A stretch of 64,000 bases of DNA from a bacterium (GTDB taxonomy: Bacteria > Patescibacteriota > Dojkabacteria > JAKAPS01). Positions within the stretch are counted from its first letter, which is position 1. Every line of letters starts with the position of its first letter. The stretch spans positions 80 through 64,079 of the forward strand of contig JAKAPS010000005.1 in assembly GCA_021806925.1 (NCBI GenBank), read 5' to 3'. Below the pieces are notes generated by a model that was not told the DNA's origin, did no database searches, and saw only the letters and a program-made list of their open reading frames with translations. This document shows positions 2,015-51,142 of the stretch, in pieces. A program made the position numbers and the translations under genes.

Positions 2015-2043
2015 ATAATGTTTAGTTTCATTTAGCTTATTTT

Positions 2044-2118
2044 GGGTTTATAGCTCAGTTTGGTTAGAGCGTTACATTGACATTGTAAAGGTCGCAGGTT
2101 CGAGCCCTGCTAAACCCA
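2044..2118 (+). tRNA. tRNA-Val (anticodon GAC), no encoded CCA
   Basis: Manual cloverleaf: acceptor GGGTTTA/TAAACCC, D-arm GCTC...GAGC, anticodon stem TTACA/TGTAA with loop TTGACAT (U33, GAC, A37), T-arm GCAGG-TTCGAGC-CCTGC, discriminator A. Confidence 0.85.
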
Positions 2119-2156
2119 ATTCTTAAATCCCTTTATATACAGCACTTTTCTTTGAG

Positions 2157-2198
2157 ATGGGAACCATACTTGATACTCACACTTTTGTGAGAGAGGAA
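2157..2198 (-). repeat. inverted, diverged copy of the ~40-bp cassette-junction repeat (R0)
   Basis: The reverse complement CCTCTCTCACAAAAGTGTGAgtatcaagtATGGTTCCCAT shares both flanks (CTCTCAaAAAAGTGTGA and ATGGTTCCCA) with the six direct copies downstream. Confidence 0.6.
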
Positions 2199-2370
2199 AA
2201 GATTGGAATATCTGGTCAAGAGGCACAGAATTTTACAAATCTAAGGGGTTTTGGTATAAATTAAATAAAATCAAGACGGAAAGTAGCGGTTTAGGATTTA
2301 TGCTTAAACAGAGCCTTTTCTTTTTGTTTCCCTTTATTCCCGATAATCTCTAATAAATAATTATAAATCT

Positions 2371-3414
2371 ATGAAGAGCTTAATGTATCCAAATAAACTA
2401 TATCCAAATGATAAAGTTGCAATTCTTTCACCTTCTGCTGGATTGCCGCAGATTTTCCCAGAAGTTTTTGATTTAGGGTTAAAAAGACTTAAAGAGATAT
2501 TTAATCTTGTGCCAGTAGAGTATCCTACAACTAGAGTATTTGGTGCTTCACTTGAGGATAAAGCAAGAGATTTACATAACGCTTTAGAGGACAATGAAAT
2601 AAAGGGAATCATTTGCTCTATTGGAGGAGATGACCAAATAAAACTATTAAAACATCTTAATCCAGAAATAGTTAAAAATAACCCTAAAATGTTCATGGGG
2701 TTTAGTGATGCAACTCATTTTCAATTATATAGATGGAACTTAGACATCGTCTCATACTATGGTGGAGCAATTATGACGCAATTTGGGATGAATGGCGCGA
2801 TGTTTGACTACACGATTGAATCTATTAAGAAAGCTCTATTTGAAGGAGGAGAGTATGAAGTACAGAATGCTCCAGAATTTGCAGATGAAGGGTTAGATTG
2901 GAGAAACCCAGAGCTTCTTAATCAGTACAGAAAACTCTACCCAAATGATGCATGGACATGGGTTAATGAAAATCAGACAATTGATGGTATAACATGGGGT
3001 GGATGCTTAGAAAGTATAGATTTCCAATTAAGAGCTGGAAGGTATATACCAAATGAAGAGGATTTAAAGGATACCATTCTTTTCTTTGAAGCATCAGAAG
3101 AAATACCTGCTGATGATTATGTATACAGAGTATTAGTTGGAATGGGTGAAAGAGGACTCCTAAAACAATTTAAGGCAGTTCTTGTAGGAAGACCTAAAGC
3201 TTGGGAATTTGATAAACCAAACTCACCTGAAGAAAAGATTGAGTATAAGAAAAAACAGCAAGAGGCTATTATGAAAGTAATGCAAGAATATAATCCAAAT
3301 GCCTTAATTGTATTTAATTTGGATTTTGGACATACTGACCCACAATTTATTATGCCAAACGGAGGTAGAGTAAAAGTGGATGGCATAAACAAAAAGATTA
3401 CTTTGTTTTACTAG
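2371..3414 (+). CDS. LD-carboxypeptidase (peptidase S66, muramoyltetrapeptide carboxypeptidase-like)
   Basis: S66 nucleophile motif GFSDAT is present. Length and overall similarity fit the LdcA family. Confidence 0.75.
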   Translation: MKSLMYPNKLYPNDKVAILSPSAGLPQIFPEVFDLGLKRLKEIFNLVPVEYPTTRVFGASLEDKARDLHNALEDNEIKGIICSIGGDDQIKLLKHLNPEIVKNNPKMFMGFSDATHFQLYRWNLDIVSYYGGAIMTQFGMNGAMFDYTIESIKKALFEGGEYEVQNAPEFADEGLDWRNPELLNQYRKLYPNDAWTWVNENQTIDGITWGGCLESIDFQLRAGRYIPNEEDLKDTILFFEASEEIPADDYVYRVLVGMGERGLLKQFKAVLVGRPKAWEFDKPNSPEEKIEYKKKQQEAIMKVMQEYNPNALIVFNLDFGHTDPQFIMPNGGRVKVDGINKKITLFY

Positions 3415-3418
3415 TAAA

Positions 3419-3751
3419 ATGAATATAGAAACACTCAGCAAGGAAATTGAAGCTATTAAAGATAGAAATAAGAAAGTAGAAGCAAATAAGGCATGGGAAA
3501 CAAGCTGGACAAGAAAGGCCTCACTGGTTTTGGTAACTTATATTGTTGTTACGCTTTGCCTTTATGTAATTCATAATTCTCAACCTTTTATAAATGCAAT
3601 TATCCCTTCAGTAGGATTCTTCTTATCAACCCAGTCATTACCCTTTATAAGGGTTTATTGGGAAAAGCACATATACATGAGTCAGGAGAAAACTGACAAA
3701 GATAAATTGAAGAAAGCAAAAAACAAGCAAAAGGCTTATTTACAGGGATAA
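3419..3751 (+). CDS. small membrane protein, hypothetical
   Basis: Two hydrophobic segments and a lysine-rich C-terminus. Confidence 0.35.
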   Translation: MNIETLSKEIEAIKDRNKKVEANKAWETSWTRKASLVLVTYIVVTLCLYVIHNSQPFINAIIPSVGFFLSTQSLPFIRVYWEKHIYMSQEKTDKDKLKKAKNKQKAYLQG

Positions 3752-3812
3752 GTTAGAGTTTTTGAAAGAAATAGAAGAAGGCTCAATGTTCCAATTTTTA
3801 GGTTCTTGTTTT

Positions 3813-3846
3813 AAAAAGGTGTGAACATCATACATGGTTCCCAGTT
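3813..3846 (+). repeat. cassette-junction repeat R1 (core AAAAAGGTGTGAACatCATACATGGTTCCCAGTT)
   Basis: Matches the repeat consensus, with a 2-bp insertion in the palindrome. A second conserved block (TTTTCTTCAAGCTAGAGCATGGACTCACAC) follows at ~3866-3900. Confidence 0.8.
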
Positions 3847-3950
3847 ACTAAAATTTTCGTTATATCTACAACACCTTTTCTTCAAGCTAGAGCATGGACT
3901 CACACTTTTTCCCAAATATGATATAATTTTCGGTATATTACTAATAAAGT

Positions 3951-4379
3951 ATGTTGCAGACTTCTCCTTTCCTTTTGTTTGACGGAAATTGTGCCGAGGC
4001 AATGACATTTTATCATAGATGTTTTGGAGGAGAGTTAACCCTTACCAAGCTAGTTGATACTGAAATGAAAAGTATGTTTCCTCCAGAAAAACATAATAGT
4101 ATCATCAACGCACATTTAAAAAGTGATAAAGTTGAACTATCTGCTACAGATTGGATGGCTTCTCCTGCTTACGAGCCTACATGGGGAGATATTGTTGCAG
4201 TATTTATTCTTGGTGATTCTTATGATGAGTTAAAGGAAGTCTTTGACAAACTTTCACAGGGAGCAAGAAGTGATAGATTTCAAGAGTTACACAGCATGCC
4301 ATTTGGTGTATACGGGCAGTTTTTTGATAAATTTGGAATACATTGGATTTTTAAAGGGGATAAAAACCCAAATCTTTGA
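3951..4379 (+). CDS. VOC/glyoxalase-family protein, PhnB-like
   Basis: N-terminal LFDGNCAEAMTFY motif typical of PhnB-like VOC proteins; ~140 aa. Confidence 0.55.
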   Translation: MLQTSPFLLFDGNCAEAMTFYHRCFGGELTLTKLVDTEMKSMFPPEKHNSIINAHLKSDKVELSATDWMASPAYEPTWGDIVAVFILGDSYDELKEVFDKLSQGARSDRFQELHSMPFGVYGQFFDKFGIHWIFKGDKNPNL

Positions 4380-4406
4380 TATTACTATCTTATTTATTTA
4401 AACGTA

Positions 4407-4649
4407 ATGTCATATAAAACTTATATTGATAACATTCAAGCAAAAACTGGAAAAGACCCTGAGTATTATCTATTGGAAGCTAAAAAAATGGGCTTAACAA
4501 CCCATAAAGAACTGCTTAATTGGTTAAAGGAAGATTGTGGTCTAGGTCACGGACATGCAAATGCCATAATTCTCTATATTCAAAATCCAGAGCTTGGAAA
4601 AAAGAAAATAGCTGAGGATGCGGCAAATGAGGTAAGGAAGAAATCATAA
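4407..4649 (+). CDS. DUF4287 domain protein
   Basis: Pattern Y-x-NI-AKTGK...W-L-K-x-GLGHGHANA matches DUF4287. This family is commonly adjacent to VOC/DUF1801 genes. Confidence 0.55.
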   Translation: MSYKTYIDNIQAKTGKDPEYYLLEAKKMGLTTHKELLNWLKEDCGLGHGHANAIILYIQNPELGKKKIAEDAANEVRKKS

Positions 4650-4671
4650 TTTGAATGAAAATTTACTAAAT

Positions 4672-4712
4672 TTCTTTCAAAAAGGTGTGAACTTCAAACA
4701 TGGTTCCCAGTT
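4672..4712 (+). repeat. cassette-junction repeat R2
   Basis: TTCAAAAAGGTGTGAACTTCAAACATGGTTCCCAGTT. The conserved block 2 follows at 4739-4771. Confidence 0.85.
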
Positions 4713-4801
4713 CTTCAAATAAACCTCTTAAAATAAACATATTTTCTTCAAGATAGAGCGTGGACTCTCACTTTATCATCAGTAGTGATATAATTCGTTA
4801 T

Positions 4802-5281
4802 ATGAATATACATCTGAGTCAAGTTAGAATAGAACAGAAAGAAGTACTTGCTTCTCTATTGCAGCTTTATCTCTATGAGTTTTCTCAATTTACTAATGAA
4901 GAATATAATGAAAAAGGTGTCTATACTTATAAGTACTTTGAACAATACTGGCTTGAGAATAATAGAAAGCCCTTCTTTATAATATCTGATAATAAAATTG
5001 TAGGTTTTGTACTAATTAACTTGGATGACCCTGAGTCAAGTGAACGTGGTATTCACACGATTTCAGAGTTTTTTGTGGCAAAAATTTACAGAAAGCAACA
5101 AATAGGAACAAAAGCAGCTGAGTTAGCATTTAATATGTATAGAGGCAGATGGATTATACGAGAGCTTATCAATAATCTTGGAGCACAAGAATTTTGGCAT
5201 AAAGTGCTAGAGTCGTATACTTCAAATTCCTATAAAGAAAAAGAAGACTCAGGGCATATCATTCAAGAATTTACAAATTAG
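4802..5281 (+). CDS. GNAT-family N-acetyltransferase
   Basis: Acetyl-CoA binding region (...FFVAKIYRKQQIGTKAAELAF...). The ORF-track start at 4760 is a GTG lying inside conserved repeat block 2, so the ATG at 4802 is more plausible. Confidence 0.55.
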   Translation: MNIHLSQVRIEQKEVLASLLQLYLYEFSQFTNEEYNEKGVYTYKYFEQYWLENNRKPFFIISDNKIVGFVLINLDDPESSERGIHTISEFFVAKIYRKQQIGTKAAELAFNMYRGRWIIRELINNLGAQEFWHKVLESYTSNSYKEKEDSGHIIQEFTN

Positions 5282-5301
5282 GAATGAAACCGAGTTGTTG
5301 T

Positions 5302-5337
5302 TTCTCTCAAAAAAGTGTGAACTTCAAACATGGTTCT
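5302..5337 (+). repeat. cassette-junction repeat R3 (3' part diverged or truncated)
   Basis: TTCTCTCAAAAAAGTGTGAACTTCAAACATGGTTC, then unrelated sequence leading into the IS66 insertion. Confidence 0.8.
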
Positions 5338-5446
5338 AGATCTTATAAACTTTACTTCTAGGAACAAGGATTCACTATGAATTTTGCTTTTCAGTTGGCT
5401 AGAATTTATAATAGCTATGTAAGTGCAGGCAATGAAAAAACATGAA

Positions 5447-7028
5447 GTAATGATTCAGGGTTAAGCAGAGGAAGAGGTTAAGGATGAGGTTTTTGTTTAG
5501 GAATGGGTATACGAGAAGCAGCAGTAAGGGTAGTAGCCAAATCGCTGATGAAGGAAGATTTTTTTGCATAGGTTTGGATAATGGATGCAGTAATGCAGCG
5601 ATTTTGAAATCCAGGAAACGAAGCAGATCCAAAGGATATTTTTCGAGCAATGACAATACTTCGCAGTTCTCGCTCAGCCAGATTATTGGTGCCATCAGTA
5701 TAGCTAAATGCTCTGGCTAAGCCTTCAGCTTGGGTAATGAGTCGCTGTTGTAAGTGGTTTGATGCAGTAGTTGCAGCAATAGCATGGATCTGTTGGACTG
5801 ATGCTTGTTGGCAATGGAATAGGTGTGCAAGGCTATGGGCAGCATTCTCATCTTCTAGATAGGCAGAGCGAAGTATATGGCTCCAACAATACAATTGTTT
5901 ATCTTTACCAATGGTATTGGTATAGGCACCATACCCATCATGCATATTGTAGGAAGAAGAATTTCCATACAAGTGTTCAATCTCACCTTTGCCTCGTGAT
6001 ACTCCCGCATGATAGATAGTGGCGGTATTGGAAGCGAATACCCATACCCATACTCTTTGTCCTTTGACGAACCAGCTTGTCTCATCGGAGTAGGTCAGCT
6101 CATCATTTCTGATTGCTTCAAGGAGTGTATCGTATTTCTCTTGTAAATATCCTGCGGCTTGTGCTTCTAATGAACAGATAACTGATGCTACTAGAGCAAG
6201 TCCTTGATAGTGGATATTCATGCATGTAGCAGTAGCATCAATAGAAAGATGGAGTTTGTTTCGAAGGATAAGTACTTGTAAAAAGACATTCAGGCCATAT
6301 TCACTAAAAGGCATACTTTGTTCATCTTTGGCAATGAGCTGTTTGTGGCAATGTGGACAATATTGCCGTTGAGATACAACACACAACTTTTGTGCAGGAG
6401 TTTGCATTGGAATCGTGATTAACAATCGTTGCCTGGTACTAGTTGTTTGAGCAACCTCATTCCCACAATTTGGACAATTCACTAACGGAGCAACTAGTTT
6501 TTGTGGTAATGAGGATAGATCAACTGTTCGATTGATATTTGCATGATGCAACTGTCCTCCTCGTGTTTTAGCTGAGCTTTCCTTTTGCTGATGATTCCCA
6601 TGACCAAACAGATACTCTTGATACACACCATTTTTATGCTCTGCTTTTTTGAGTTCTTGGGCTAGTGCATCTCGTTGCTTGGTCAGATTTGTAATTTGTT
6701 CAGCTTTGAGGTTACTATCTGCCTCAAGTAATGCTAGATGCATTGCTTGCTGCTGGAATTTTTTTTGTAGTTTAGTAAGTCTCATCTTGAGCAGTGCATT
6801 TTCAGCTCGCAGTGGAGCTACTTCTGCTCGAAGTTTCTTAAGTATGCTTATGTAATAGGCAGCTTCTTTATCAGTAGGAAAAATGGTGTGTTTGCTTTGT
6901 TGGCGCCAATTGGTATACATTAGTCTTGTTTAAGAGATTTTGAGGAAGGCATTTGCCTTCCTCATTTATTCTTTCACAGCATCCTCATTCCTTGCAAGCA
7001 CAGCCTCTGGCTAACCCTGAATCATTAC
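5447..7028 (-). mobile_element. IS66-family insertion sequence, tnpC-only type, ~1.58 kb
   Basis: Imperfect ~27-bp terminal inverted repeats start with GTAA: GTAATGATTCAGGGTTAAGCAGAGG at 5447 and its complement ending at 7028. They flank a single transposase ORF. GC content is markedly higher than the surrounding DNA. Confidence 0.75.
5478..6920 (-). CDS. IS66-family transposase (TnpC)
   Basis: N-terminal leucine-zipper/coiled coil, CxxC...CxxC zinc-finger (CPNCGNE...CPHCHKQ), a DDE region (DETSWFV...) and the conserved NNLAERELR motif. Confidence 0.85.
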   Translation of the reverse strand: MYTNWRQQSKHTIFPTDKEAAYYISILKKLRAEVAPLRAENALLKMRLTKLQKKFQQQAMHLALLEADSNLKAEQITNLTKQRDALAQELKKAEHKNGVYQEYLFGHGNHQQKESSAKTRGGQLHHANINRTVDLSSLPQKLVAPLVNCPNCGNEVAQTTSTRQRLLITIPMQTPAQKLCVVSQRQYCPHCHKQLIAKDEQSMPFSEYGLNVFLQVLILRNKLHLSIDATATCMNIHYQGLALVASVICSLEAQAAGYLQEKYDTLLEAIRNDELTYSDETSWFVKGQRVWVWVFASNTATIYHAGVSRGKGEIEHLYGNSSSYNMHDGYGAYTNTIGKDKQLYCWSHILRSAYLEDENAAHSLAHLFHCQQASVQQIHAIAATTASNHLQQRLITQAEGLARAFSYTDGTNNLAERELRSIVIARKISFGSASFPGFQNRCITASIIQTYAKKSSFISDLATTLTAASRIPIPKQKPHP

Positions 7029-7077
7029 TTTTCCTACAAATGATTCTCCTAAAATTTTATGGTATAATATCTATGTT

Positions 7078-7326
7078 ATGAAAGAATCAAAAGTATTAAA
7101 TTTAATAATTTGGCAAGAAGGAAAATTGTATGTGGCTCAGTCACTAGAGTTTGGTATCGCTAGCCAAGGAACTACTTATGATAAGGCTGTTAAGAATATA
7201 AAAGAAGCAATAAAACTATATTTGGAAGAAGATAAAGAAGCGAGGGATGAAGTACAGTATTTTCCTGAAATTAAAGACCTTCACTTTGAACAGGTAAATA
7301 CTCAGTCACTTCAGATTCATGTCTAA
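7078..7326 (+). CDS. hicB: HicB-family antitoxin (UPF0150 N-terminal domain)
   Basis: The N-terminal domain pattern (...GKLYVAQSLEFGIASQGTTYDKAVKNIKEAIKLYLE) matches UPF0150/HicB. It overlaps the downstream hicA by 8 nt. An extended -10 (TGGTATAAT) lies upstream. Confidence 0.7.
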   Translation: MKESKVLNLIIWQEGKLYVAQSLEFGIASQGTTYDKAVKNIKEAIKLYLEEDKEARDEVQYFPEIKDLHFEQVNTQSLQIHV

Positions 7327-7540
7327 TCTATTCTCAGGCAAAGAAGTTGTTAATAGTCTTCTAAAAATTGGCTTTATAGTGGTATCTCAAAAAGGGAGTC
7401 ATGTAAAACTAAAGGGTATATATCATAACCAATCACGAATTGTTATTGTGCCTATGCACAAAGAAATTGCTAAAGGAACCTTTAGGTCAATTCTTCTGCA
7501 ATCTGGTTTGACTTTAGAAGAGTTTAAATCAATTAAATAG
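7319..7540 (+). CDS. hicA: HicA-family mRNA-interferase toxin
   Basis: GSHVKL...IVIVPMH...GTFRSILLQSGL matches the HicA/YcfA fold signature. It is translationally coupled to hicB. Confidence 0.75.
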   Translation: MSNLFSGKEVVNSLLKIGFIVVSQKGSHVKLKGIYHNQSRIVIVPMHKEIAKGTFRSILLQSGLTLEEFKSIK

Positions 7541-7562
7541 CATCTTACCAAGTTACCCCTCC

Positions 7563-7592
7563 TTTCAAAAAAGTGTGACTTCACACATGGTT
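7563..7592 (+). repeat. cassette-junction repeat R4 (1-bp deletion in the palindrome)
   Basis: TTTCAAAAAAGTGTGACTTCACACATGGTT. Lies 23 nt after the hicA stop and 105 nt before the next start. Confidence 0.8.
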
Positions 7593-7696
7593 TAAATATG
7601 TTGGCAATATCCTTACCACTTCAATACTAAACCATCATTTTGATTGCCACCTAATATATAGAGTATAATTCTCATGGAACGATATGTTGAGTAGAT

Positions 7697-8190
7697 ATGA
7701 ATAATTATGCCTTTATAGATAGTCAAAACCTTAATTTAGCAATAAGAGACCAAGGATGGAAGCTTGACTTTGCTAGATTTAAAGAGTATTTGCGAGCAAA
7801 ATATGGAGTAACAAAATGCTTTCTCTTTATTGGGTATGTTCCGGATAATCAAAGAATGTATACTGCTTTACAAAAACTGGGTTATGTAATTATCTTTAAG
7901 CCGACACTTATGCAGTAAGGAGTTATCAAAGGGAATTGTGATGCCGAGTTAGTGCTTCATGCAATTATAGAATACTCAAACTATAAACAAGCTGTTATTG
8001 TCTCAGGTGATGGAGATTTCTTTTGTTTAATTGATTATCTAAAAAGCCAAGGAAATTGGCAGCATTATTAAATCCAAACCAAAGATTTTATAGTTCATTA
8101 TTAAGAAAAATAGGGAATGAGCATCTAAAGTTTATGAACAACCTTAAAAAGAAGCTTGAATACAAACTAAAAGAAAAGGCACTTAATTAA
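7697..8190 (+). pseudogene. NYN-domain (LabA-like) gene, decayed
   Basis: The collinear NYN sequence (MNNYAFIDSQN...IGYVPDNQ...KGNCDAELVLHAI...VSGDGDFFCLIDYLKSQ...YSSLLRKIGNEHLKFMNNLKKKLEYK) is interrupted by an in-frame TAA at 7916-7918. A -1 frameshift after ...YLKSQ is consistent with loss of one A in GGAAAATTGG. Confidence 0.7.
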
Positions 8191-8307
8191 GCATTTATAA
8201 CTTAAAAAGCTCCTTTTCATCTTAATTCAGTTTGAATTATACCAAATCGCCTATATTTTGTAAAATTCTGCTAATTTTCAGGATATTTACCTGCTTGTTC
8301 TTTTTTT

Positions 8308-8342
8308 AAGAAAGTGTGAACTTCACACATGGTTCCCAGTTT
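8308..8342 (+). repeat. cassette-junction repeat R5 (perfect palindrome GTGTGAAcTTCACAC)
   Basis: AAGAAAGTGTGAACTTCACACATGGTTCCCAGTT. Block 2 follows at ~8363-8395. Confidence 0.85.
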
Positions 8343-8444
8343 ATAAGATTACCTCTTTAAATCAATATTTTCTTCAAGGTAGAACAAAGATTCTCATTTT
8401 TTTCTATGAAATGCTATACTGATATGAAGTTCAAATAATGTAAT

Positions 8445-9149
8445 ATGAGAATAGCAGTTATTGCAGATTCACATGCCAATGTAATTGCCCTTGAAAAAGT
8501 TCTTTCTGAAATAAAAACAAAAGGTTATGATATGGTTTACCATTTAGGTGACAGCATTAACCTCGGTCCATTTCCCAAAGAAACTGTTGAAATGCTTTTA
8601 GATTTCCCTAACATGAATTTCATTCTGGGAGACCATGATATGCGTTATTTAAATGATTTAGAAGGGTTTATTCCAAAAGTTGAAGGAGCAGTAGAACATT
8701 ATAATTGGAGTCACTCTATGTTAACTCCTATGCTTAAAGATAGAATAAATCAGTGGCCATTTGTACAACATAAGCAATTCAATAACCTTAATATTTCATT
8801 TGTCCATTATGGGTTAAATGAAGAAGAAAATGATTTTTTACCAATTGTTTATGAACCTAAAATAGAAAACTTAGATAGTTATTTTGATAAGTACAAAAGT
8901 GATTTAGTTTTTTATGGACATACCCATAAAATACAAAATGCCTTTGGACATAAACATTATTTAAATCCCGGTGCGGTAGGTGTGAATAATAAAGCACATA
9001 TTCCGTATCTATTATTAGATATTCAGGATGATGGAACATACCAAGTAACACAGTATCAAATCCCCTATAATATTGAACCAGTGCTAAAAGCATTTCATGA
9101 CAGGAATGTCCCAAATAGGGAACAAATAATTAACATATTTTATCAATAA
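8445..9149 (+). CDS. metallophosphoesterase (calcineurin-like phosphoesterase, YfcE-like)
   Basis: Motifs IAVIADSHAN, GD, GDHD and GHTH match the conserved metallophosphoesterase signatures. Confidence 0.8.
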   Translation: MRIAVIADSHANVIALEKVLSEIKTKGYDMVYHLGDSINLGPFPKETVEMLLDFPNMNFILGDHDMRYLNDLEGFIPKVEGAVEHYNWSHSMLTPMLKDRINQWPFVQHKQFNNLNISFVHYGLNEEENDFLPIVYEPKIENLDSYFDKYKSDLVFYGHTHKIQNAFGHKHYLNPGAVGVNNKAHIPYLLLDIQDDGTYQVTQYQIPYNIEPVLKAFHDRNVPNREQIINIFYQ

Positions 9150-9156
9150 ACATTTC

Positions 9157-9196
9157 TTCTCTCAAAAAAGTGTGAACTTCACACATGGTTCCCATT
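9157..9196 (+). repeat. cassette-junction repeat R6 (perfect palindrome)
   Basis: TTCTCTCAAAAAAGTGTGAACTTCACACATGGTTCCCATT. Starts 8 nt after the stop codon and ends 104 nt before the next start. Confidence 0.85.
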
Positions 9197-9299
9197 CATT
9201 AGACATTATTGATAATATATATAAACTAATTCCTCTTTTGAATTTATATATACGCAATATGTATACAAATGTATAAATTTATGTATATAATCAAAGTAA

Positions 9300-10157
9300 A
9301 TGATACTTTTTTACACTCAAATAAACAACTCGATTATTTCTAATTTCAAGCAAAGCAATAACATCAATGTAACAACTAGTAAGTTAATACAACCTACAAC
9401 ATTAACATATATTAATGGAGTTGACTGCACAAAAGGTGACTATATAGTAGCATTATCTAAAACAATAGATACAACAACATCTACATATACATTTGATAAA
9501 TATTCAACATCGTCAGAATATAACACTTTATTTGTTGACTATTTAACAAGTTTAGGCATATTTGATAAAAGTGTGATTACTCAGAATAATTCTTCACTTA
9601 ACGACGTTGCATGTAATACAGAGTTAGCTATGAATATATACTCTTCAAGTAACCAAACTACATTTTCACAAAATAGGATTGATTTACTGAACACCCTATA
9701 TAACATAACAGGTACACTGCTAAAAAATAACAATGTATCATCTGTAAGCAACTTTGAATTTTCATTGTTAAACTATATCTTCTCATACCCTGATAACAAG
9801 TTCACAGTTGATGAAGCGGTTACTATTGCAATGAAGAAATACAATATAACTGCAGATCAAAACACCTCTACCGTTATATCCAGTTTTGCATATACATTTG
9901 AAACAGATGAAATGAATTTTGATAATTCATTCAGATATATTGAATTAATAAATAATAGTAAATCAATTTTAGTATTGTCATCAGAGTTGCAATCGACTCC
10001 AAAATCATACTCATACTCAAATCCCAATATATTAAAACTACTTCTACTTATATTTGTCATTTTAATATCTTTCGGGTATATATATAAAAGAATTTTTTCA
10101 TCAAAAATAAGAAAAAGTTCTAACAAAGTAAAAAATATAAACAATGATAAAACATAA
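9300..10157 (+). CDS. hypothetical S/T/N-rich protein with a C-terminal TM anchor
   Basis: C-terminal hydrophobic helix (LLLLIFVILISFGYIY) followed by basic residues. No recognisable domain. Start uncertain. Confidence 0.35.
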   Translation: MILFYTQINNSIISNFKQSNNINVTTSKLIQPTTLTYINGVDCTKGDYIVALSKTIDTTTSTYTFDKYSTSSEYNTLFVDYLTSLGIFDKSVITQNNSSLNDVACNTELAMNIYSSSNQTTFSQNRIDLLNTLYNITGTLLKNNNVSSVSNFEFSLLNYIFSYPDNKFTVDEAVTIAMKKYNITADQNTSTVISSFAYTFETDEMNFDNSFRYIELINNSKSILVLSSELQSTPKSYSYSNPNILKLLLLIFVILISFGYIYKRIFSSKIRKSSNKVKNINNDKT

Positions 10158-28650: not shown

Positions 28651-28799
28651 GCTATCCATGGCATCCCATAACGTAGAGAAATGTGGATCATCGTTTGATG
28701 CTCTAACTTGTACATTATCTAAAGAGATAATTGAAGCAATTAAAAAAAATATGTTTTAATGTATGTGGTATATTAACCAGCGAATTCCAATCGGGTCGT

Positions 28800-29756
28800 A
28801 TGGAAATAAAGCCTAAAATTGGATGCGAGTTAGAATTTAGATTTATTCCACCAGATGAAGATTATTCTTTAGAGCATAAAAGAAATGTAGATGCATTTAT
28901 TGAATCAGTACGTAAAGATCCAAAACTCCATAAGATTCTACAAACACCTGATGATAAATATGGTATTGATACTGGATTATCAATGATTGGTCAAATCTCA
29001 GCAGAATTTAGATTAAACCCTTTTATATTGGATGAATATATTAATGAAATAGAATTCTTTATTGAATATATAGTAGAAAAATGTAATGAATACCATATAA
29101 TCCCTATTGTAATAGCAAATCATCAACATATATCAATTACTGACATAAATGGTTTATCGAATGTTATGAATAATATTAATGATCTGAATGCAATAATGGT
29201 GGGCATTTTAGATGCGTATCATAGACTTTTTCCATTAACAAGGCTTCCTACAGAAAAAGGAGTTGCACAATATAATTTTGGATTGAAACAAAACGGCTAT
29301 CCCGATAGTGCTATGACACCTTCAGGGTATCCCTGTATGTTTAACCCGAACCCAATAAGGATTGAAACAAGACTAAACAATTCAGAATATATGTTTGACC
29401 CATGGACTACTCTGTTCGTTATATTACTAGGAGTATATAGAGGATTATTGCTATCTAATAATCCTGAGTTAATTGATAAAGATTATCCATTAGATGTTGG
29501 TTATCTTCCACTTGGTAAGGAGTTCATGTATAATTGTTCTCCAGATAACAATTATATCTTTGCTATACAGCATCTAGTAAATGATGAAATCGTTGGACAA
29601 TTTTTAAGTCAAGGTGTTGTTGCTATGCTTCGCCTTATAGCAGGTCTATATAATGATATTTCAAAAGGAAAAATTGGTAAAGAGGATGCATTTAAGTTAG
29701 TTAGAAAATGTAAAAAAGCTTTAGAAAAAAGTAACCGAAAAAGAAGAAATACATAA
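28800..29756 (+). CDS. GCS2-like carboxylate-amine ligase / glutamine-synthetase-fold amidoligase (putative)
   Basis: IGCELEFRF (compare YbdK GvElEf), HQHISI (compare HvHvgv) and IRIETRL (compare lEvRvcD) resemble glutamate-cysteine ligase family 2. The ORF-track start at 28731 may be upstream of the real start. Confidence 0.45.
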   Translation: MEIKPKIGCELEFRFIPPDEDYSLEHKRNVDAFIESVRKDPKLHKILQTPDDKYGIDTGLSMIGQISAEFRLNPFILDEYINEIEFFIEYIVEKCNEYHIIPIVIANHQHISITDINGLSNVMNNINDLNAIMVGILDAYHRLFPLTRLPTEKGVAQYNFGLKQNGYPDSAMTPSGYPCMFNPNPIRIETRLNNSEYMFDPWTTLFVILLGVYRGLLLSNNPELIDKDYPLDVGYLPLGKEFMYNCSPDNNYIFAIQHLVNDEIVGQFLSQGVVAMLRLIAGLYNDISKGKIGKEDAFKLVRKCKKALEKSNRKRRNT

Positions 29757-29797
29757 TTGATTTACATTACATCGCATTTAATATATATTATATTTGT

Positions 29798-31312
29798 ATG
29801 TTTAGAAGAATTCTTGTTACCTTTCTTATTGGAGTGTTTGCTTTTTCTGTAGTAAGTATTTCAATAGGTATACTTACAAATAAATACAATATCGCAAATG
29901 CAAATGTAAATCATTACTATTTCTCAATGGGTAATTTCACAAGTCAATCACCTGTAATGGATTTTAACTATGGAAGTAGTTTGCAACCATCAGTACTTTA
30001 TGTAGGAAATACGTATACTTTAAGTGAAACATTCACTATTAATAATCTATACCAAATAGATTTATATAACAAACATGATATATTAGGGTTGCAAGCAAAT
30101 AAAATACTTGAATCAGGTGGAATAAATTTGCAGAGTGGAAATGCAGGAATAACATTAGGAGCTTTAGATAGTAACAGACAAAGTGGAAACGATAATCAAG
30201 AAGCTGTAGCAAGTGACGGAACAACAGTTATAGGGAGTGGAAAATACTTCAATCAATATTTATGCGGAGATAGCGAATATAGTGTGATTCCATATGATTC
30301 TAGTCAAATAGGGAAAACATATACAATTACATGTAATTTCACACCTAAAACAACAGGATACTTTCAAATTGATGCAGTTGATTATGCATTTCAACATTAT
30401 CAACAAAATCAAGGATTATCATGTTCAGATGGTTATTGTGGAGCTCAGTATGCAGTATTTTTAAGAGTAGTTAACAAGTCTCCAACACCAACACCTACTC
30501 CTACACCGACTCCAACTCAAACTCCACCACCTGAATTTGCAACTACATTAAATGGAAATGTATTTTCACAGAATGGTTACGTAAACACAACTAATACATC
30601 AGTTCCTTTCTCAACATATATTCTTAGTGAGGAATCTAGTTCTGGAAATACTAATAGCGTAAAAAGCCTGTATAACTGGGATTTTGATAACTATATATCA
30701 GGATACAATAGTGTTGATAAAACCCAATATATAAAATATGGATATTCATATTTTAAAAATGAGTTGTGCCAAACAAATACATGTACAACACAAACTACAA
30801 ATACAATAACAAATTCAAGTCAATTTGTAACTGGTGTCAATTTGTATAACAATGGGTTAAACATTGATGGAACAAATGGTGATCTTCCTATCAATGGTAT
30901 ATTAATTGTTAACGGTGATGTTAATATAACAACAGATGGATATAACAAAACATTCCTTAATAGCAATGGAAACTTATTGATCATTTCAAATGGTAATATT
31001 AATATAAATCCACCACAAAACGAATGTACTAACTGCTCGAATAATGGTTATAGTTACCTAAATGCAGGGCTAATATCAGATAAATCAATAAATTTTAATT
31101 CAAGTATAGGAAATAACAATAACACATTACCTTTAATAGATCAGGGGATTGTTGTTGGATACACAAATGTTAATTTCTATTATTCATATCTATATAAATT
31201 AAATAATTTGACTATACCAAAAGTTGATATAGAATATAACCCGAATTTGATACTTTTAGTTAGTCAATATTTTCCAACAGTAGACCAGGTATCAATTACG
31301 TATAGTCTATGA
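29798..31312 (+). CDS. secreted/surface protein with a (PT)n linker and a C-terminal domain shared with the downstream giant protein
   Basis: N-terminal signal anchor and a PTPTPTPTPTPTQTPPPE linker. The C-terminal ~250 aa are homologous to the C-terminus of ORF 31309-34602 (LYNWDF/LYNWQF, YGYSYF/YGYSYL and GNININP segments). Confidence 0.5.
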   Translation: MFRRILVTFLIGVFAFSVVSISIGILTNKYNIANANVNHYYFSMGNFTSQSPVMDFNYGSSLQPSVLYVGNTYTLSETFTINNLYQIDLYNKHDILGLQANKILESGGINLQSGNAGITLGALDSNRQSGNDNQEAVASDGTTVIGSGKYFNQYLCGDSEYSVIPYDSSQIGKTYTITCNFTPKTTGYFQIDAVDYAFQHYQQNQGLSCSDGYCGAQYAVFLRVVNKSPTPTPTPTPTPTQTPPPEFATTLNGNVFSQNGYVNTTNTSVPFSTYILSEESSSGNTNSVKSLYNWDFDNYISGYNSVDKTQYIKYGYSYFKNELCQTNTCTTQTTNTITNSSQFVTGVNLYNNGLNIDGTNGDLPINGILIVNGDVNITTDGYNKTFLNSNGNLLIISNGNININPPQNECTNCSNNGYSYLNAGLISDKSINFNSSIGNNNNTLPLIDQGIVVGYTNVNFYYSYLYKLNNLTIPKVDIEYNPNLILLVSQYFPTVDQVSITYSL

Positions 31313-34300
31313 AAAGAATCACTTTATTAAAGAAAATATCAATTCCGATTTGTTTTTCTTTAATATTCATATTCTTCTATGTATTTGTAATAAAAGGAAA
31401 TGTACTGTTAAATGCAACAGTATTTTCTCAAACTAGCTTGCCATATTGTGGCTCTCTTGCAAACCCATCGAGTCAATATGTTTGTAACAGTGGAAGCAGC
31501 TATCACTTATGCTATGATTTCAATGATAGCCAGTACAGTGCTTATGGTATATATGTATCAAATCAATGTACAGGCAGTGGGCAATGTGCTCCTCCTCCTG
31601 CCGGATTTTACCAAAATACATGGGCAGGAGGACAATGTTGTGCAAAGGTTGTGAATTCACCACTTGGTAAGACATGTGCTACAATTGATTATTACGATCA
31701 ATCTGATGACTTACCAATCAATTGCGGATTCATTGATTCTGGTGCTACTACAAGATGCACAGATTATAATAGCCTAGCAATATACCCCCACTTGGCCTGG
31801 GCATCATATTGTTCAGGGGACACTAACGCAACATGCACAGGATCCAATTCAAGCCAGTGTTCAAGCGAAACAGGTTATGGACTTTACAGCAGCGGAGTAA
31901 GCAGTTATTGCTGGAATGCATACTATTATTACACAAACTATCAAGAGTATTATTATCAAAGAATCCCTACAATAACAGGGGGAAGCATATATAACAATAG
32001 TACAAATCAATATGTAGCAAGTGGTTCTACACAGATGTTTAACAATAGGATAACTGATTCAGTAAGTTTAAATACTTGGAGTGGCGTAACATCTACATCA
32101 TGGAAAGAAGTTATAACTGACAATATTGATAATAAATCAAGCACATATTATGGTAGCGGTGGGTCATTCACTTACACATTAAATTCAGGTAGTATATCAA
32201 ATCCAACACCAAATGAAACTTTTCACTATTATGTTACATTTACTGAATACTATAACGGAGGCAGTCAATCATGGTCATCTAGTTTAAGTGCAGTAAACCC
32301 TCCTCCAAAACCAGTAATAAGCTCAATATCAATATATGATAACAGTTTAAGCAGGGGACTAAATTCAGGTGATACAGGATTATACTCTGACAGCATAACA
32401 GCATCCCCTTCTATTAATACTACATACATAACTAGGGACTGGAAAGAGAATGTAACTGCAAGCGGAGGAGGTAATACTACCATTGACCTTGGTTCATCTT
32501 CAAACATAACCTTTAATTTAAATGCCATAGTAGGAACACCATCTCCAGGAGAGAAATACACCTTTAATATAACGCTTAATGTCAATAATACAAGTGGAAG
32601 TGCATCAAGCTCATTTACTTTATACATGTATATCCCAGTAAATTTCTCTTTTTCATGTCAATCTAATGCCGAAAGCTTACTTGCTGCATCTAATCCATTA
32701 ATTGAGTATGATAATAGCCCGACTAATCCTTGTAGCAATTGGAGTGTATTAGCAAATAACTATATTAAGACAAGCGGTAGCAACTATAACTCATCATTTG
32801 AGGCATCTAATAGAGATAGTATAGTTTATTTCCCTGGAACTGATAATGTTGCAATGCTAACTGGAGCAGGATCAAATAATATATGGATAGTAAAGTGGCA
32901 ATTTGAAAATTCTTCACTTCAAAATATTGTAAACCCTAGTACAGTGCAAGTTGCAATTCTTGTAAATAACACAACAACGCCAACTGATCTCACAATAAGC
33001 TATGCTTCTAACCAGCCTAATAGTCTATTTGTGTCTCAGTATTCACAAAATTCAAGTATATTAAACATACCTTGGAATGTAATTAGTGCAGATGAAAATA
33101 GCTTTTTAAATAACGTACCCTTTTCACCAATTAATGCTAATAACTATATATTCTACAGGTACAATAAAAGCCTATATGCAAATGGTATTATAGCTGATGG
33201 AAATAACTTGTATTGGGGAATGATTGATAGAACTACCAATACAAACTATATATATGAATTCAATATTCAGAATGGTTCTATAACACAAAAATGGGACTTG
33301 GGTTCAACAGGTACAAGTCAAACAGGTGTTCTTCAAAATGGAAAAAGAGTCAGATTTTTGAATTCATGGTGGTCTGTTGATGGATTATCAGTTTCGCCTG
33401 ATGGGAAGTATGTATTTGCCGTATCACAACAGGGGATTTTAATATGGGTAATTCAAAATGCACAGGGAACAAGCCCTTCAATGCTTGGATACGCTCCAGT
33501 ATTAACTGGAACTACTGACCTTTCTAAAGAAAGCGGACTTCAAGGGCTTGATGGTATTGCAGTTGACCCAAATGGTCAGATATATTTTGTTCTGTATAAC
33601 CAAGGAATATATAGTACATCTGAAACTCAATTGATAAATGCAGCAAGTGAGAATGGTAATTCATTTTTACAATATGGTACAAATATATACATATACGCAA
33701 ATGCAACTGTAAATGCACAAGCATTTATTACAGGAAATTTTGATGATATTGCTCCATTATCATTTCCAGGAGCTCCAACAATAACCCCTGCAAAGTGGAT
33801 GAATACAATGGGGGCAAATGTTTTCTCCCAATATGGATACGGTTCTCTCCAAAATCCATTAAATCTGAATTTCAGTGAGTATGGATTATTCGATAATACA
33901 AACAAAGTAAATAAATATGCTTCACTATATAACTGGCAATTCTCAAGTTATACATCTATGGATAATTCAATTAACGGAAGTATAACACCAGTGTACGGAT
34001 ACAGTTATCTTATGGATGATATTTGTAACAATAGTGGAAAAAATAAATGTAATACTGTATCAACTTCTTCACTTCCATCTAACACAATTAATGGAAGTGT
34101 AGCTTTAAATGGAGTTAACATATTAAATGGAAATATTACAATTGACGCAAGTAGCGGTGGAATACAAACTACAGGAATACTTTTTATTAACGGTAACCTT
34201 ACAATAACTCCAGATAGTAGTAACACATTTTTCAGCAATTCACAAGATAGGCTTCTTGTAATTGTATCTGGAAATATTAATATAAATCCTAATTCATATT

Positions 34301-34602
34301 ATTGCTCAGGAACAAATTGTAACTCCAACCTTTATTATCAATACATCAATTTAGGATTAGTATCCAATGGAAGTATTACTGTAAACCCATATGTTAATAA
34401 TCTATCATTTCCAAACTATATGGAACCTCTTGTTATCTCTGGAGTAGGTATATTTTATGGAGGAATAACACAGAAACTTGATATTGGAAATCTTGATTTA
34501 TATGACCCTGCCGTAAAGTTTAATTATGACCCAACTTTGATACTTCAAAATGAAAATTTCTTTACAGATTCTCAACTTGTCAGCCAACAATTAGGGCTAT
34601 AG
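31309..34602 (+). CDS. large (1097 aa) secreted Cys-rich surface protein with a beta-propeller-like middle and shared C-terminal domain
   Basis: Signal anchor, then ~170 aa with more than 25 Cys, S/T/N-rich repeats, and YVFAVSQQG / LDGIAVDPNGQIYFV propeller-like blades. The C-terminal domain is paralogous to that of the upstream gene. Start overlaps the upstream stop (ATGA). Confidence 0.5.
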   Translation: MKRITLLKKISIPICFSLIFIFFYVFVIKGNVLLNATVFSQTSLPYCGSLANPSSQYVCNSGSSYHLCYDFNDSQYSAYGIYVSNQCTGSGQCAPPPAGFYQNTWAGGQCCAKVVNSPLGKTCATIDYYDQSDDLPINCGFIDSGATTRCTDYNSLAIYPHLAWASYCSGDTNATCTGSNSSQCSSETGYGLYSSGVSSYCWNAYYYYTNYQEYYYQRIPTITGGSIYNNSTNQYVASGSTQMFNNRITDSVSLNTWSGVTSTSWKEVITDNIDNKSSTYYGSGGSFTYTLNSGSISNPTPNETFHYYVTFTEYYNGGSQSWSSSLSAVNPPPKPVISSISIYDNSLSRGLNSGDTGLYSDSITASPSINTTYITRDWKENVTASGGGNTTIDLGSSSNITFNLNAIVGTPSPGEKYTFNITLNVNNTSGSASSSFTLYMYIPVNFSFSCQSNAESLLAASNPLIEYDNSPTNPCSNWSVLANNYIKTSGSNYNSSFEASNRDSIVYFPGTDNVAMLTGAGSNNIWIVKWQFENSSLQNIVNPSTVQVAILVNNTTTPTDLTISYASNQPNSLFVSQYSQNSSILNIPWNVISADENSFLNNVPFSPINANNYIFYRYNKSLYANGIIADGNNLYWGMIDRTTNTNYIYEFNIQNGSITQKWDLGSTGTSQTGVLQNGKRVRFLNSWWSVDGLSVSPDGKYVFAVSQQGILIWVIQNAQGTSPSMLGYAPVLTGTTDLSKESGLQGLDGIAVDPNGQIYFVLYNQGIYSTSETQLINAASENGNSFLQYGTNIYIYANATVNAQAFITGNFDDIAPLSFPGAPTITPAKWMNTMGANVFSQYGYGSLQNPLNLNFSEYGLFDNTNKVNKYASLYNWQFSSYTSMDNSINGSITPVYGYSYLMDDICNNSGKNKCNTVSTSSLPSNTINGSVALNGVNILNGNITIDASSGGIQTTGILFINGNLTITPDSSNTFFSNSQDRLLVIVSGNININPNSYYCSGTNCNSNLYYQYINLGLVSNGSITVNPYVNNLSFPNYMEPLVISGVGIFYGGITQKLDIGNLDLYDPAVKFNYDPTLILQNENFFTDSQLVSQQLGL

Positions 34603-47911: not shown

Positions 47912-51142
<3,231 letters not shown>

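Follow-up and report, generated by a model that had tools for sequence, protein, structure and literature searches.

The DNA analyzed here (the window) is a 64,000-nucleotide stretch of contig JAKAPS010000005.1 (GenBank assembly GCA_021806925.1) from a bacterium of the Dojkabacteria (Patescibacteriota). Positions 2120 to 9195 of the window hold a compact array of six co-oriented units of 0.6 to 1.7 kb, mostly with a single open reading frame (ORF), beside a tRNA-Val gene (Table 1). Each unit consists of a leader, its gene or genes, and a ~45-nt repeat that serves as its 3′ site, and the junction falls at CCCA(G) in every informative case. An original prediction, made from the letters of the window, had described gene, 3′ repeat, and promoter-bearing leader as the unit, and this modular architecture is supported. 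With moderate confidence, we interpret the six units as mobile cassettes, placed head-to-tail at the 3′ end of tRNA-Val, with site-specific recombination moving them at a site that imitates a tRNA 3′ end. The design is integron-like in its logic but is not an integron.

Table 1. Features of the array and of its tRNA anchor, in window coordinates
Feature	Position	Strand	Details
tRNA-Val(GAC)	2043..2119	+	Array anchor; last bases ...AAACCCA-A; ARAGORN; Rfam tRNA, 72 bits
First 37 nt of a cassette leader	2120..2156	+	TTCTTAAATCCC...CACTTTTCTTTGAG; starts at the first base past tRNA-Val
Inverted, diverged remnant of the NYN-cassette 3′ end	2157..2335 (~180 nt)	-	Includes R7, 2158-2201
Cassette 1: S66 LD-carboxypeptidase and 110-aa membrane protein	2371-3414; 3419-3751	+	Pfam Peptidase_S66, S66C
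Repeat R1	3799..3844	+	3′ site of cassette 1; ends ...ATGGTTCCCAG
Cassette 2 leader	3845..3950	+	Block 2, 3876-3905; extended -10 (TGATATAAT), 3919-3927
Cassette 2: VOC/PhnB-like and DUF4287	3951-4379; 4407-4649	+	Pfam
Repeat R2	4665..4710	+	
Cassette 3	4711..5281	+	Leader; block 2, 4742-4771; -10, 4789-4794, preceded by TG
Cassette 3 gene: GNAT acetyltransferase	ATG 4802 to 5281	+	Pfam; gene call in L020
Repeat R3	5295..5336	+	Core mutated: GGTTCTAG in place of GGTTCCCAG
Putative degenerate leader and lost-cassette stub, cut by an insertion sequence (IS)	5337..5444	+	Read from sequence
IS66-family IS	5445..7030	-	27-bp inverted repeats, 5445-5471 and 7004-7030; transposase 5478-6920, Pfam DDE_Tnp_IS66; 41% GC
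hicBA cassette	7031..7540	+	Leader remainder; -10 TGGTATAAT, 7060-7068; hicB 7078-7326; hicA 7319-7540; Pfam
Repeat R4	7553..7596	+	1-nt palindrome deletion; CCCAG core gone
NYN-like pseudogene	7697..8190	+	Multiple frame disruptions; 3′ untranslated region (UTR) 8191-8293
Repeat R5	8294..8339	+	Window/L021 divergence step located here
Cassette 6	8340..9149	+	Diverged block 2, 8365-8397; -10 TGCTATACT, 8412-8420; metallophosphoesterase 8445-9149
Repeat R6, terminal copy	9150..9195	+	L021 homology ends at ...GGTTCCCA (9194); then core DNA without leader

Pfam confirms the predicted S66, VOC/PhnB-like, DUF4287, GNAT, IS66, HicB/HicA, and metallophosphoesterase assignments, and the inserted IS66 element and the hicBA module are as described. 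The NYN label lacks Pfam support, the first 73 amino acids (aa) of its ORF giving no match, and is a reading of the sequence only; the ORF carries 7 in-frame stops.

Four further arrays were found in other metagenomes through exact and near-exact protein look-ups; L021, L022, L023, L024, and L027 are the labels of the metagenome loci compared with the window. L021 (ENA ERZ27233560) holds hicA, the NYN pseudogene, and the metallophosphoesterase gene, then Ser_hydrolase and RibD_C, each behind a module. L022 equals L023 (ENA ERZ27245399 and JGI 3300028800, respectively): a tRNA cluster ending in tRNA-Gln, an opposite-strand cupin gene, the repeat, and hicB. In L024 (Logan ERR11571144), tRNA-Gln is followed by four cassettes, including DUF4258-DUF2283 and hicBA. 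L027 (ENA ERZ27280970) shows a PALP pseudogene, the repeat, and hicB interrupted by another IS, which is a different, DDE-type element.

Anatomy of the repeat and the leader

The repeat occurs in six direct copies and one inverted copy between 2.1 and 9.2 kb, and in none of the remaining 55 kb of the window. Its 28-nt core AAAGTGTGAnnnTCAnACATGGTTCCCA was counted six times against 0.00 expected from shuffles (plus strand at 3816, 4682, 5312, 8311, and 9167; inverted at 2158-2185). The palindrome GTGTGAAnTTCACAC, with up to 2 mismatches, was counted five times against 0.21 expected, and a further site at 7558-7592 contains the palindrome with a 1-nt deletion. An nhmmer profile of the ~115-nt module matched exactly these seven places and nothing in 9.2-64 kb, which confines the module to the array within the available 64 kb. 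The predicted number and range of the copies are thereby reproduced. Nor is the repeat a generic genome-wide promoter, the alternative that the prediction itself had named, since no copy lies in the 55 kb of core DNA.

The 3′ site is built, in order, of a pyrimidine tract, an A tract, the imperfect palindrome GTGTGAAcTTCAnAC, and a 10-nt core, ATGsTyCCCA(G); the consensus of 17 aligned copies is TTCTTCTyTCAmAAAAGTGTGAACTTCAnACATGsTyCCCAG. In the relatives the repeat reads AAAGTGTGAACTTCAnACATGCTCCCCAG, and the L027 version ...AATACTTCCCAG. The symmetry of the palindrome in the alignment is 7-1-7, and its sequence is mostly well conserved, with one arm position variable (C/A/T). Thus, the earlier statement that the flanks are better conserved than the palindrome centre needs correction, but the sequence recognition by a protein deduced from it fits the lack of covariation described below.

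The distance from stop codon to repeat is 7-22 nt at four junctions, and 54 and 110 nt at the other two. From CCCAG to the next start codon, the three complete window modules measure 91-106 nt. The original prediction had given somewhat different numbers for both distances. In L021 (3355-3364), the stop TGA of the RibD_C ORF lies within the repeat palindrome (GTG TGA), so that the recombination site provides the stop codon.

A typical leader after the site reads TTTCTAAATAAATC..CAAATCAACAC..TTTTCTTCAAGATAGAGCATGGACTCTCACTTTTT, followed by a cassette-specific stretch with TGnTATAAT and the start codon. Block 2 (TTTTCTTCAAGnTAGAGCnTGGACTCnCAC), which had been reported behind R1, R2, and R5, is indeed shared by them, exact after the first two and diverged after the third. 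The extended -10 boxes of the leaders were likewise recovered as TGnTATAAT or TGnTATACT. Those at 3919-3927 and 8412-8420 were found by promoter scan, and those at 4786-4794 and 7060-7068 were read from the sequence. In the hicB (7060-7080) and GNAT (4786-4804) cassettes, the -10 ends 7-9 nt before the ATG. Since this distance is so short, the hicB and GNAT mRNAs are probably leaderless. The module ends in short inverted sequences (AAAAGTGTGA ... TCnCACTTTT). Accessory binding sites may be provided by the A tract, by the GTGTGA half-sites, and by the inverted form in which these recur in block 2 (TCnCACTTTT).

Such features also invite a purely regulatory explanation, in which the palindrome and block 2 would be operators of one transcription factor and nothing would move. 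The half-sites of the palindrome are TGTGA/TCACA, the distance from the module to the promoters downstream of it is fixed, and block 2 (AGAG-N6-CTCT) overlaps the -35 region with one compensatory variant. The classical CRP site is TGTGA-N6-TCACA. However, the half-sites here are spaced by 3 nt, not 6, and the site centre lies ~105 nt upstream of the transcription start. Furthermore, the terminal copies of the window (W_R6) and of L021 (L21_e) have no promoter or gene downstream, the RibD_C ORF ends inside the repeat, the content of the arrays varies between strains, and one cassette occurs in four contexts. As the sole explanation, an operator array is already contradicted, and we regard it as highly improbable. 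Of the three readings offered by the original prediction, recombination is thus favored; a promoter module or an operator is possible as an extra function of the leader but cannot explain the terminal copies or the tRNA junctions.

Tests of the site type

The arrays resemble integrons and integrase-less integron arrays (CALINs; PMC4889954) in several ways. Both consist of small cassettes in one orientation, mostly with a single gene and always with a conserved recombination site at the end; both vary in content between strains, contain toxin-antitoxin and decayed cassettes, and share a pool across hosts. As in CALINs, no integrase lies beside the array. An ORF ending in the site, together with small co-oriented cassettes, toxin-antitoxin cassettes, and pseudogenes, is also typical of sedentary integrons. 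Therefore, a true integron array without integrase, carrying unusual attC sites, was considered. No attC pair (RYYYAAC...GTTRRRY, 40-150 nt apart) is present on either strand of 2120-9300, with a mean of 1.55 in shuffles. Both negatives of the original prediction, the lack of canonical attC cores and the lack of a linked intI, are upheld: no ORF of at least 120 aa in the 64-kb window matches an integrase of the intI type. The modules, folded as DNA on both strands, were no better than shuffles (z from +0.12 to -1.87), and RNAalifold on the alignment gave merely 3-4-bp helices. Integron attC sites are 57-141 bp long and folded, with R″/L″/L′/R′ boxes, whereas the site here is ~45 bp of conserved sequence with neither fold nor covariation. 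Integron cassettes are expressed from Pc, and the cassettes here bring their own promoters. Integron arrays start at attI beside intI, and this one is anchored at the end of a tRNA gene. Lastly, the boundary of the units lies between the site and the conserved leader, that is, in the middle of the conserved module and not at its 3′ edge, unlike in integrons. We consider a CALIN with aberrant attC sites to be scarcely credible.

Several other assignments of the site gave nothing. The idea that block 2 forms the distal arm of an extended hairpin similar to attC was rejected, since the sequence folds no better than shuffles. No intrinsic terminator exists on the gene (+) strand, where the A tract precedes the hairpin; a terminator-like pattern appears only on the minus strand, at R4, R5, and R6. 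Rfam 15 returned only tRNA (E up to 1 in 1-12 kb; gathering score across the window).

The palindrome shows 0 compensatory pairs in the alignment, and pair 3 is G-A or G-T in 12 of the 17 copies. This absence of covariation, with a broken third pair, argues for recognition of a double-stranded sequence rather than a folded strand. Recognition of this kind sets the site apart from integron attC and weakens models of the HUH type. In such models (IS200/IS605, IS91, or Helitron), single-strand transposition would recognize the subterminal palindrome and cut ~10 nt 3′ of it. The palindrome does lie 10-11 nt before the 3′ end of the unit, a geometry similar to that at the right end of IS608 and the 3′ end of Helitrons; target-site duplications are lacking, and all units are co-oriented. 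In contrast, the hairpin is not maintained, the folding tests found no matching hairpin at the 5′ end of the unit, and neither the window nor the related contigs contain a Y1/Y2 HUH gene. HUH-type transposition is thus very unlikely.

Xer-dependent modules offer another comparison. Like the pdif (XerC/XerD) modules of Acinetobacter plasmids, the cassettes are small accessory or toxin-antitoxin modules bounded by short conserved sites, occur in various contexts, and would depend on a recombinase encoded elsewhere. A dif or pdif site has 28 bp in an 11-6-11 arrangement (XerC and XerD arms with a 6-nt spacer), and pdif sites alternate in orientation. In the alignment no dif-like 11-6-11 symmetry was seen, and all sites but one are direct. 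The repeats also differ from pdif in being chromosomal and beside a tRNA gene.

tRNA junctions, array boundaries, and variation between strains

A point missed by the original prediction is that the 3′ end of the repeat copies the 3′ end of a tRNA, and that arrays begin precisely where a tRNA gene stops. In L022 and L024, the final 10 nt of the repeat (TGCTCCCCAG) agree with the 3′ end of the L022 tRNA-Gln at 10/10 positions and with that of the L024 tRNA-Gln at 9/10; direct repeats thus copy the 3′ part of the target tRNA, as in tRNA-targeted elements. A derivation of the repeat from the entire 3′ half of tRNA-Gln by divergence was rejected, because identity past the 10-nt core is 12/30 and not significant. 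In L024, the leader begins at the first base after tRNA-Gln, where ...CCCTGTTCCCCAG is followed directly by TTCTTAAAT...; this trailer (TTCTTAAATTT) corresponds to module positions 40-113 (E 1.7e-9). The window array likewise begins at 2120, directly past tRNA-Val. Its first 37 nt (2120-2156) are in register with the leaders of the other cassettes and with the L024 tRNA-Gln trailer, a match equalled by 19/3000 shuffles and 15/3000 random 37-mers (p about 0.005). The tRNA in L022 (tRNA-Gln, 5060-5074) has an encoded CCA after ...CCCCAG; L024 tRNA-Gln (310-320) and window tRNA-Val (2110-2122), each directly followed by a cassette leader, have none.

The other end of the arrays is equally sharp. 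Both terminal copies stop at CCCA(G), W_R6 at ...GGTTCCCA beside core DNA and L21_e at ...GGTTCCCAG beside unrelated DNA. Cassettes without the generic leader still start after CCCCAG, namely a gene for a 135-aa protein in L024 and the opposite-strand cupin gene in L022.

The tRNA-Val side of the array had been described as a classic island integration site with an inverted, diverged seventh repeat next to the tRNA. The adjacency to tRNA-Val stands, with the start of the array now placed at 2120 and its 37 nt of leader. The seventh copy is inverted and diverged, but it is neither a lone repeat nor an island boundary: on the minus strand, 2157-2335 is a diverged copy of the NYN cassette from its final codons through its 3′ UTR to its repeat. 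It aligns with 8150-8345 and with the L021 and L022 equivalents (blastn match 2227-2329). The 3′ UTR of the NYN cassette contains a near-consensus minus-strand promoter (8264..8236, TTTACA-17-TATAAT with TG) facing back into NYN; this UTR is kept in L021, and also in L022 despite deletion of the NYN gene. In the inverted remnant, this predicted antisense promoter now points into the S66 gene, and the inverted UTR copy (2227-2260) upstream of S66 probably drives it.

The content of the arrays varies, as the prediction had proposed to check. L021 1-1982 aligns with window 7214-9194, ending exactly at CCCA; beyond this point L021 has its two extra cassettes, where the window has core DNA. Window and L021 differ at 2 positions in 1112 nt up to 8325 and at about 65 in 870 nt from 8326, which corresponds to an identity with this sister strain of 99.8% as far as R5 and 92.5% beyond it. 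The switch lies inside R5; therefore, the metallophosphoesterase cassette has another history than its neighbors. Furthermore, hicBA has four upstream neighbors: GNAT with IS66 (window), cupin (L022/L023), DUF4258-DUF2283 (L024), and the PALP pseudogene (L027).

The cassettes are also conserved beyond the genes of their hosts. The hicBA cassette of the window is 86-91% identical to those of L022 and L024, its first 120 nt are 81% identical to L027, and hicB DNA is 90-91% identical among window, L022, and L024 (L022 versus L024, 90%). For the core proteins beside the L022 and L024/L026 arrays, identity is only 40% (SBP) and 48% (transglutaminase); L026 is the upstream neighbor of L024 (29-nt overlap), found from the L022 SBP protein (one relative). 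Array GC is 32-33% in hosts with core GC of 30, 37, and 40%.

The linkage of hicBA and NYN differs among arrays. The two are linked in the window, L021, and L022, and not in L024, where the core after hicA is intact and another sequence follows. The junction after hicA reads GGTTTAAAT (window 7590-7600, compared with L024 2985-3005), which looks like the usual GGTTCCCAGTTTCTAAAT minus 9 nt, with the crossover core thereby removed. Loss of the CCCAG core from R4 would explain the linkage as a fused unit.

The IS66 element lacks an 8-bp target duplication (5337-7030). The 108 nt to its left resemble a degenerate leader and the opening codons of a cassette gene now gone, and a deletion associated with the IS is suggested by this arrangement. 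As an agent of cassette movement the element was rejected: it has its own inverted repeats and 41% GC and interrupts the hicB leader, and is a bystander.

Two further accounts of these arrays deserve weighing. The first is decay of larger tandem elements, which would have inserted with their integrases at the tRNA one after another and then lost the integrases and most genes. Such islands are documented in Prochlorococcus, where successive tRNA-gene integrations left units separated by partial tRNA copies and degraded remnants (10.1101/2020.12.28.424599). The repeat core equals the tRNA end, and the pseudogenes and IS insertions show ongoing decay. Like tycheposon islands and elements of the CIME type, our arrays sit at tRNA 3′ ends as hypervariable islands with successive units separated by a repeat copying part of the tRNA, and integrase-less units of those elements also need an integrase in trans. 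The units here, in contrast, are uniformly small (0.6-1.7 kb); they have one or two intact ORFs behind a conserved leader with its promoter and end in the conserved 45-nt site, and none in the five arrays holds a fragment of an integrase or replication gene. In addition, the single-operon hicBA unit is found intact in four contexts. The part copied from the tRNA is only ~10 nt long, and the rest of the repeat is a distinct motif, with its own A tract and palindrome, kept across divergent hosts. Decay of tandem integrative elements therefore appears quite unlikely.

The second account is homologous recombination, in which the ~115-nt conserved module would act as a portable promoter/insulator homology and DNA would be taken up via competence-like genes, with no dedicated recombinase. 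Identity among the modules reaches 75-90% over ~115 nt, the divergence step in R5 would also be expected from gene conversion between repeats, type IV pilus and PilB/PilT genes lie within the window, and no recombinase was found there. However, homologous exchange cannot make the ends of the arrays, where two terminal copies stop at CCCA(G) beside unrelated DNA. It also leaves unaccounted for the two arrays starting at the first base after a tRNA gene, the 10-nt identity with tRNA-Gln, and the leader-less cassettes that start after CCCCAG. As a full account, we regard it as unlikely.

Several points count against site-specific recombination at a tRNA-mimicking site. Homologous recombination between the ~115-nt modules could explain some of the shuffling and the divergence step. 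The anchor match in the window is poor, as tRNA-Val shares merely CCCA with the repeat core. The crossover cannot be placed to the exact nucleotide because W_R6 ends in CCCAT, not CCCAG. In the five arrays, no excised circle or empty site (tRNA-Val joined to TTCATTAG) has been seen so far. No recombinase or Phage_integrase was detected by Pfam or NCBIfam in any ORF of at least 120 aa of the 64-kb window except the IS66 transposase, nor did the short related contigs reveal any; a recombinase hidden in unannotated ORFs of the window was rejected on the same searches. The evidence comes from five short, independent metagenomic arrays, all reached via hicBA, so the sample is small and biased. Finally, close relatives of the lineage are missing from the databases: among 5.8 billion proteins, the best match to ClpP reaches 57% identity.

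Wider searches added little. A HicB protein search gave 4 matches; cluster look-ups of 20 cassette proteins gave almost only singletons; and the contigs of P0026, P0027, and P0028 (L025, L028-L032) were without the module. The pattern AARGTGTGAnnnTCAnnnATGGTTC, searched in GTDB genomes, JGI metagenomes, and IMG/VR, gave only single chance matches with unrelated flanks; it was too narrow, missing the ATGCTCCCCA variant present in JGI 3300028800 (L023). A broader pattern had no match on viral contigs, nor had blastn of cassettes and modules against plasmids and phages. On a 13.3-kb contig of JGI 3300050821, a distant hicBA pair (55% identity) is embedded in an extended run of accessory genes, all small, in the same orientation, and with short spacers (RibD_C, ABC transporters, PIN, NUDIX, SnoaL). 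This run may be a different kind of accessory-gene row.

Proposed mechanism, host, and significance

A recombinase whose gene lies outside the array, either elsewhere in the genome or on a helper element, would join a cassette site with a tRNA end or with the site of a resident cassette. It would most likely be a tyrosine recombinase acting on double-stranded DNA, with crossover at or just after CCCA(G) and, possibly, a circular cassette as intermediate. Tyrosine integrases are known to insert DNA at the very 3′ end of tRNA genes. The substrate would be a cassette that starts with a 5′ leader of ~100 nt carrying its own extended -10 promoter, continues with one or two ORFs, and ends in a ~45-bp 3′ site whose core ATGsTyCCCA(G) copies the last bases of a tRNA gene (tRNA-Gln in the relatives). 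Insertion, excision, and swapping of cassettes would produce co-oriented, strain-variable arrays fed by a pool that distantly related hosts share, and each cassette would be expressed from its own promoter.

The surroundings of the array are ordinary chromosome. Trigger factor and ClpP lie upstream; thioredoxin reductase, a UvrD-type helicase, IF3, L20, and PheST follow downstream. Farther along the window are PBP1, RecG, NusB, RNase III, a type IV pilus cluster, GyrB (with an intein), GyrA, and PilB/PilT. The contig was assembled independently from more than one metagenomic sample (ENA, NCBI); in ENA it is contig k141_313618 of ERZ27237364. The type IV pilus cluster, PBP1, a short trigger factor, 30% GC, and the standard genetic code suggest a reduced, uncultivated lineage. 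The trigger factor (567-1385) has only 272 aa, matching Trigger_N and, weakly, Trigger_C; the PPIase domain in its centre appears to be missing. The intein of the 1075-aa GyrB (47915-51142) spans residues 507-934 (Pfam Intein_splicing). Four large ORFs (341, 504, 1097, and 745 aa; 28731-34602 and 58255-60492) have no Pfam match and no meaningful NCBIfam match.

Repetitive elements of the Correia, ERIC, and REP type share with our module its intergenic position, its length of ~115 nt, its short inverted ends, and its supply of a promoter. In contrast to them, the module is not dispersed, being absent from the 55 kb of core DNA. It also occurs as half-modules exactly at array and tRNA ends, which insertion of whole miniature elements cannot yield. 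We found no description of such arrays in the literature. Cassette arrays formed by site-specific recombination and islands beside tRNA genes are known. What is new is the tRNA-end-mimicking site, the cassettes' own promoters, and the lack of a linked integrase and of attC. It is possible, and we put it forward tentatively, that the arrays represent a gene-capture system analogous but unrelated to integrons. Such a system would have cassettes with their own promoters, a ~45-bp double-strand site imitating the end of tRNA-Gln, a dedicated recombinase that acts in trans and stacks the cassettes at the ends of tRNA genes, and a pool shared by deeply divergent, uncultivated, AT-rich bacteria.

Since the site is short and well defined (AAAGTGTGAACTTCAnACATGsTyCCCAG), it can be used for metagenome mining, for co-occurrence analysis with recombinases, and for recombination tests in vitro. 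The site pattern AAAGTGYGAACTTCANAMATRSTYCCCAG or the 115-nt profile would serve for the mining. Among systems that accumulate single-gene cassettes through site-specific recombination, only integrons are well understood. If the proposed system is real, it would be a second, independent design, which docks at tRNA ends and uses short double-strand sites and self-expressed cassettes, and platforms for cassettes would have evolved more than once. It would also provide a route of gene exchange in poorly known, uncultivated bacteria with few recognizable mobile elements.

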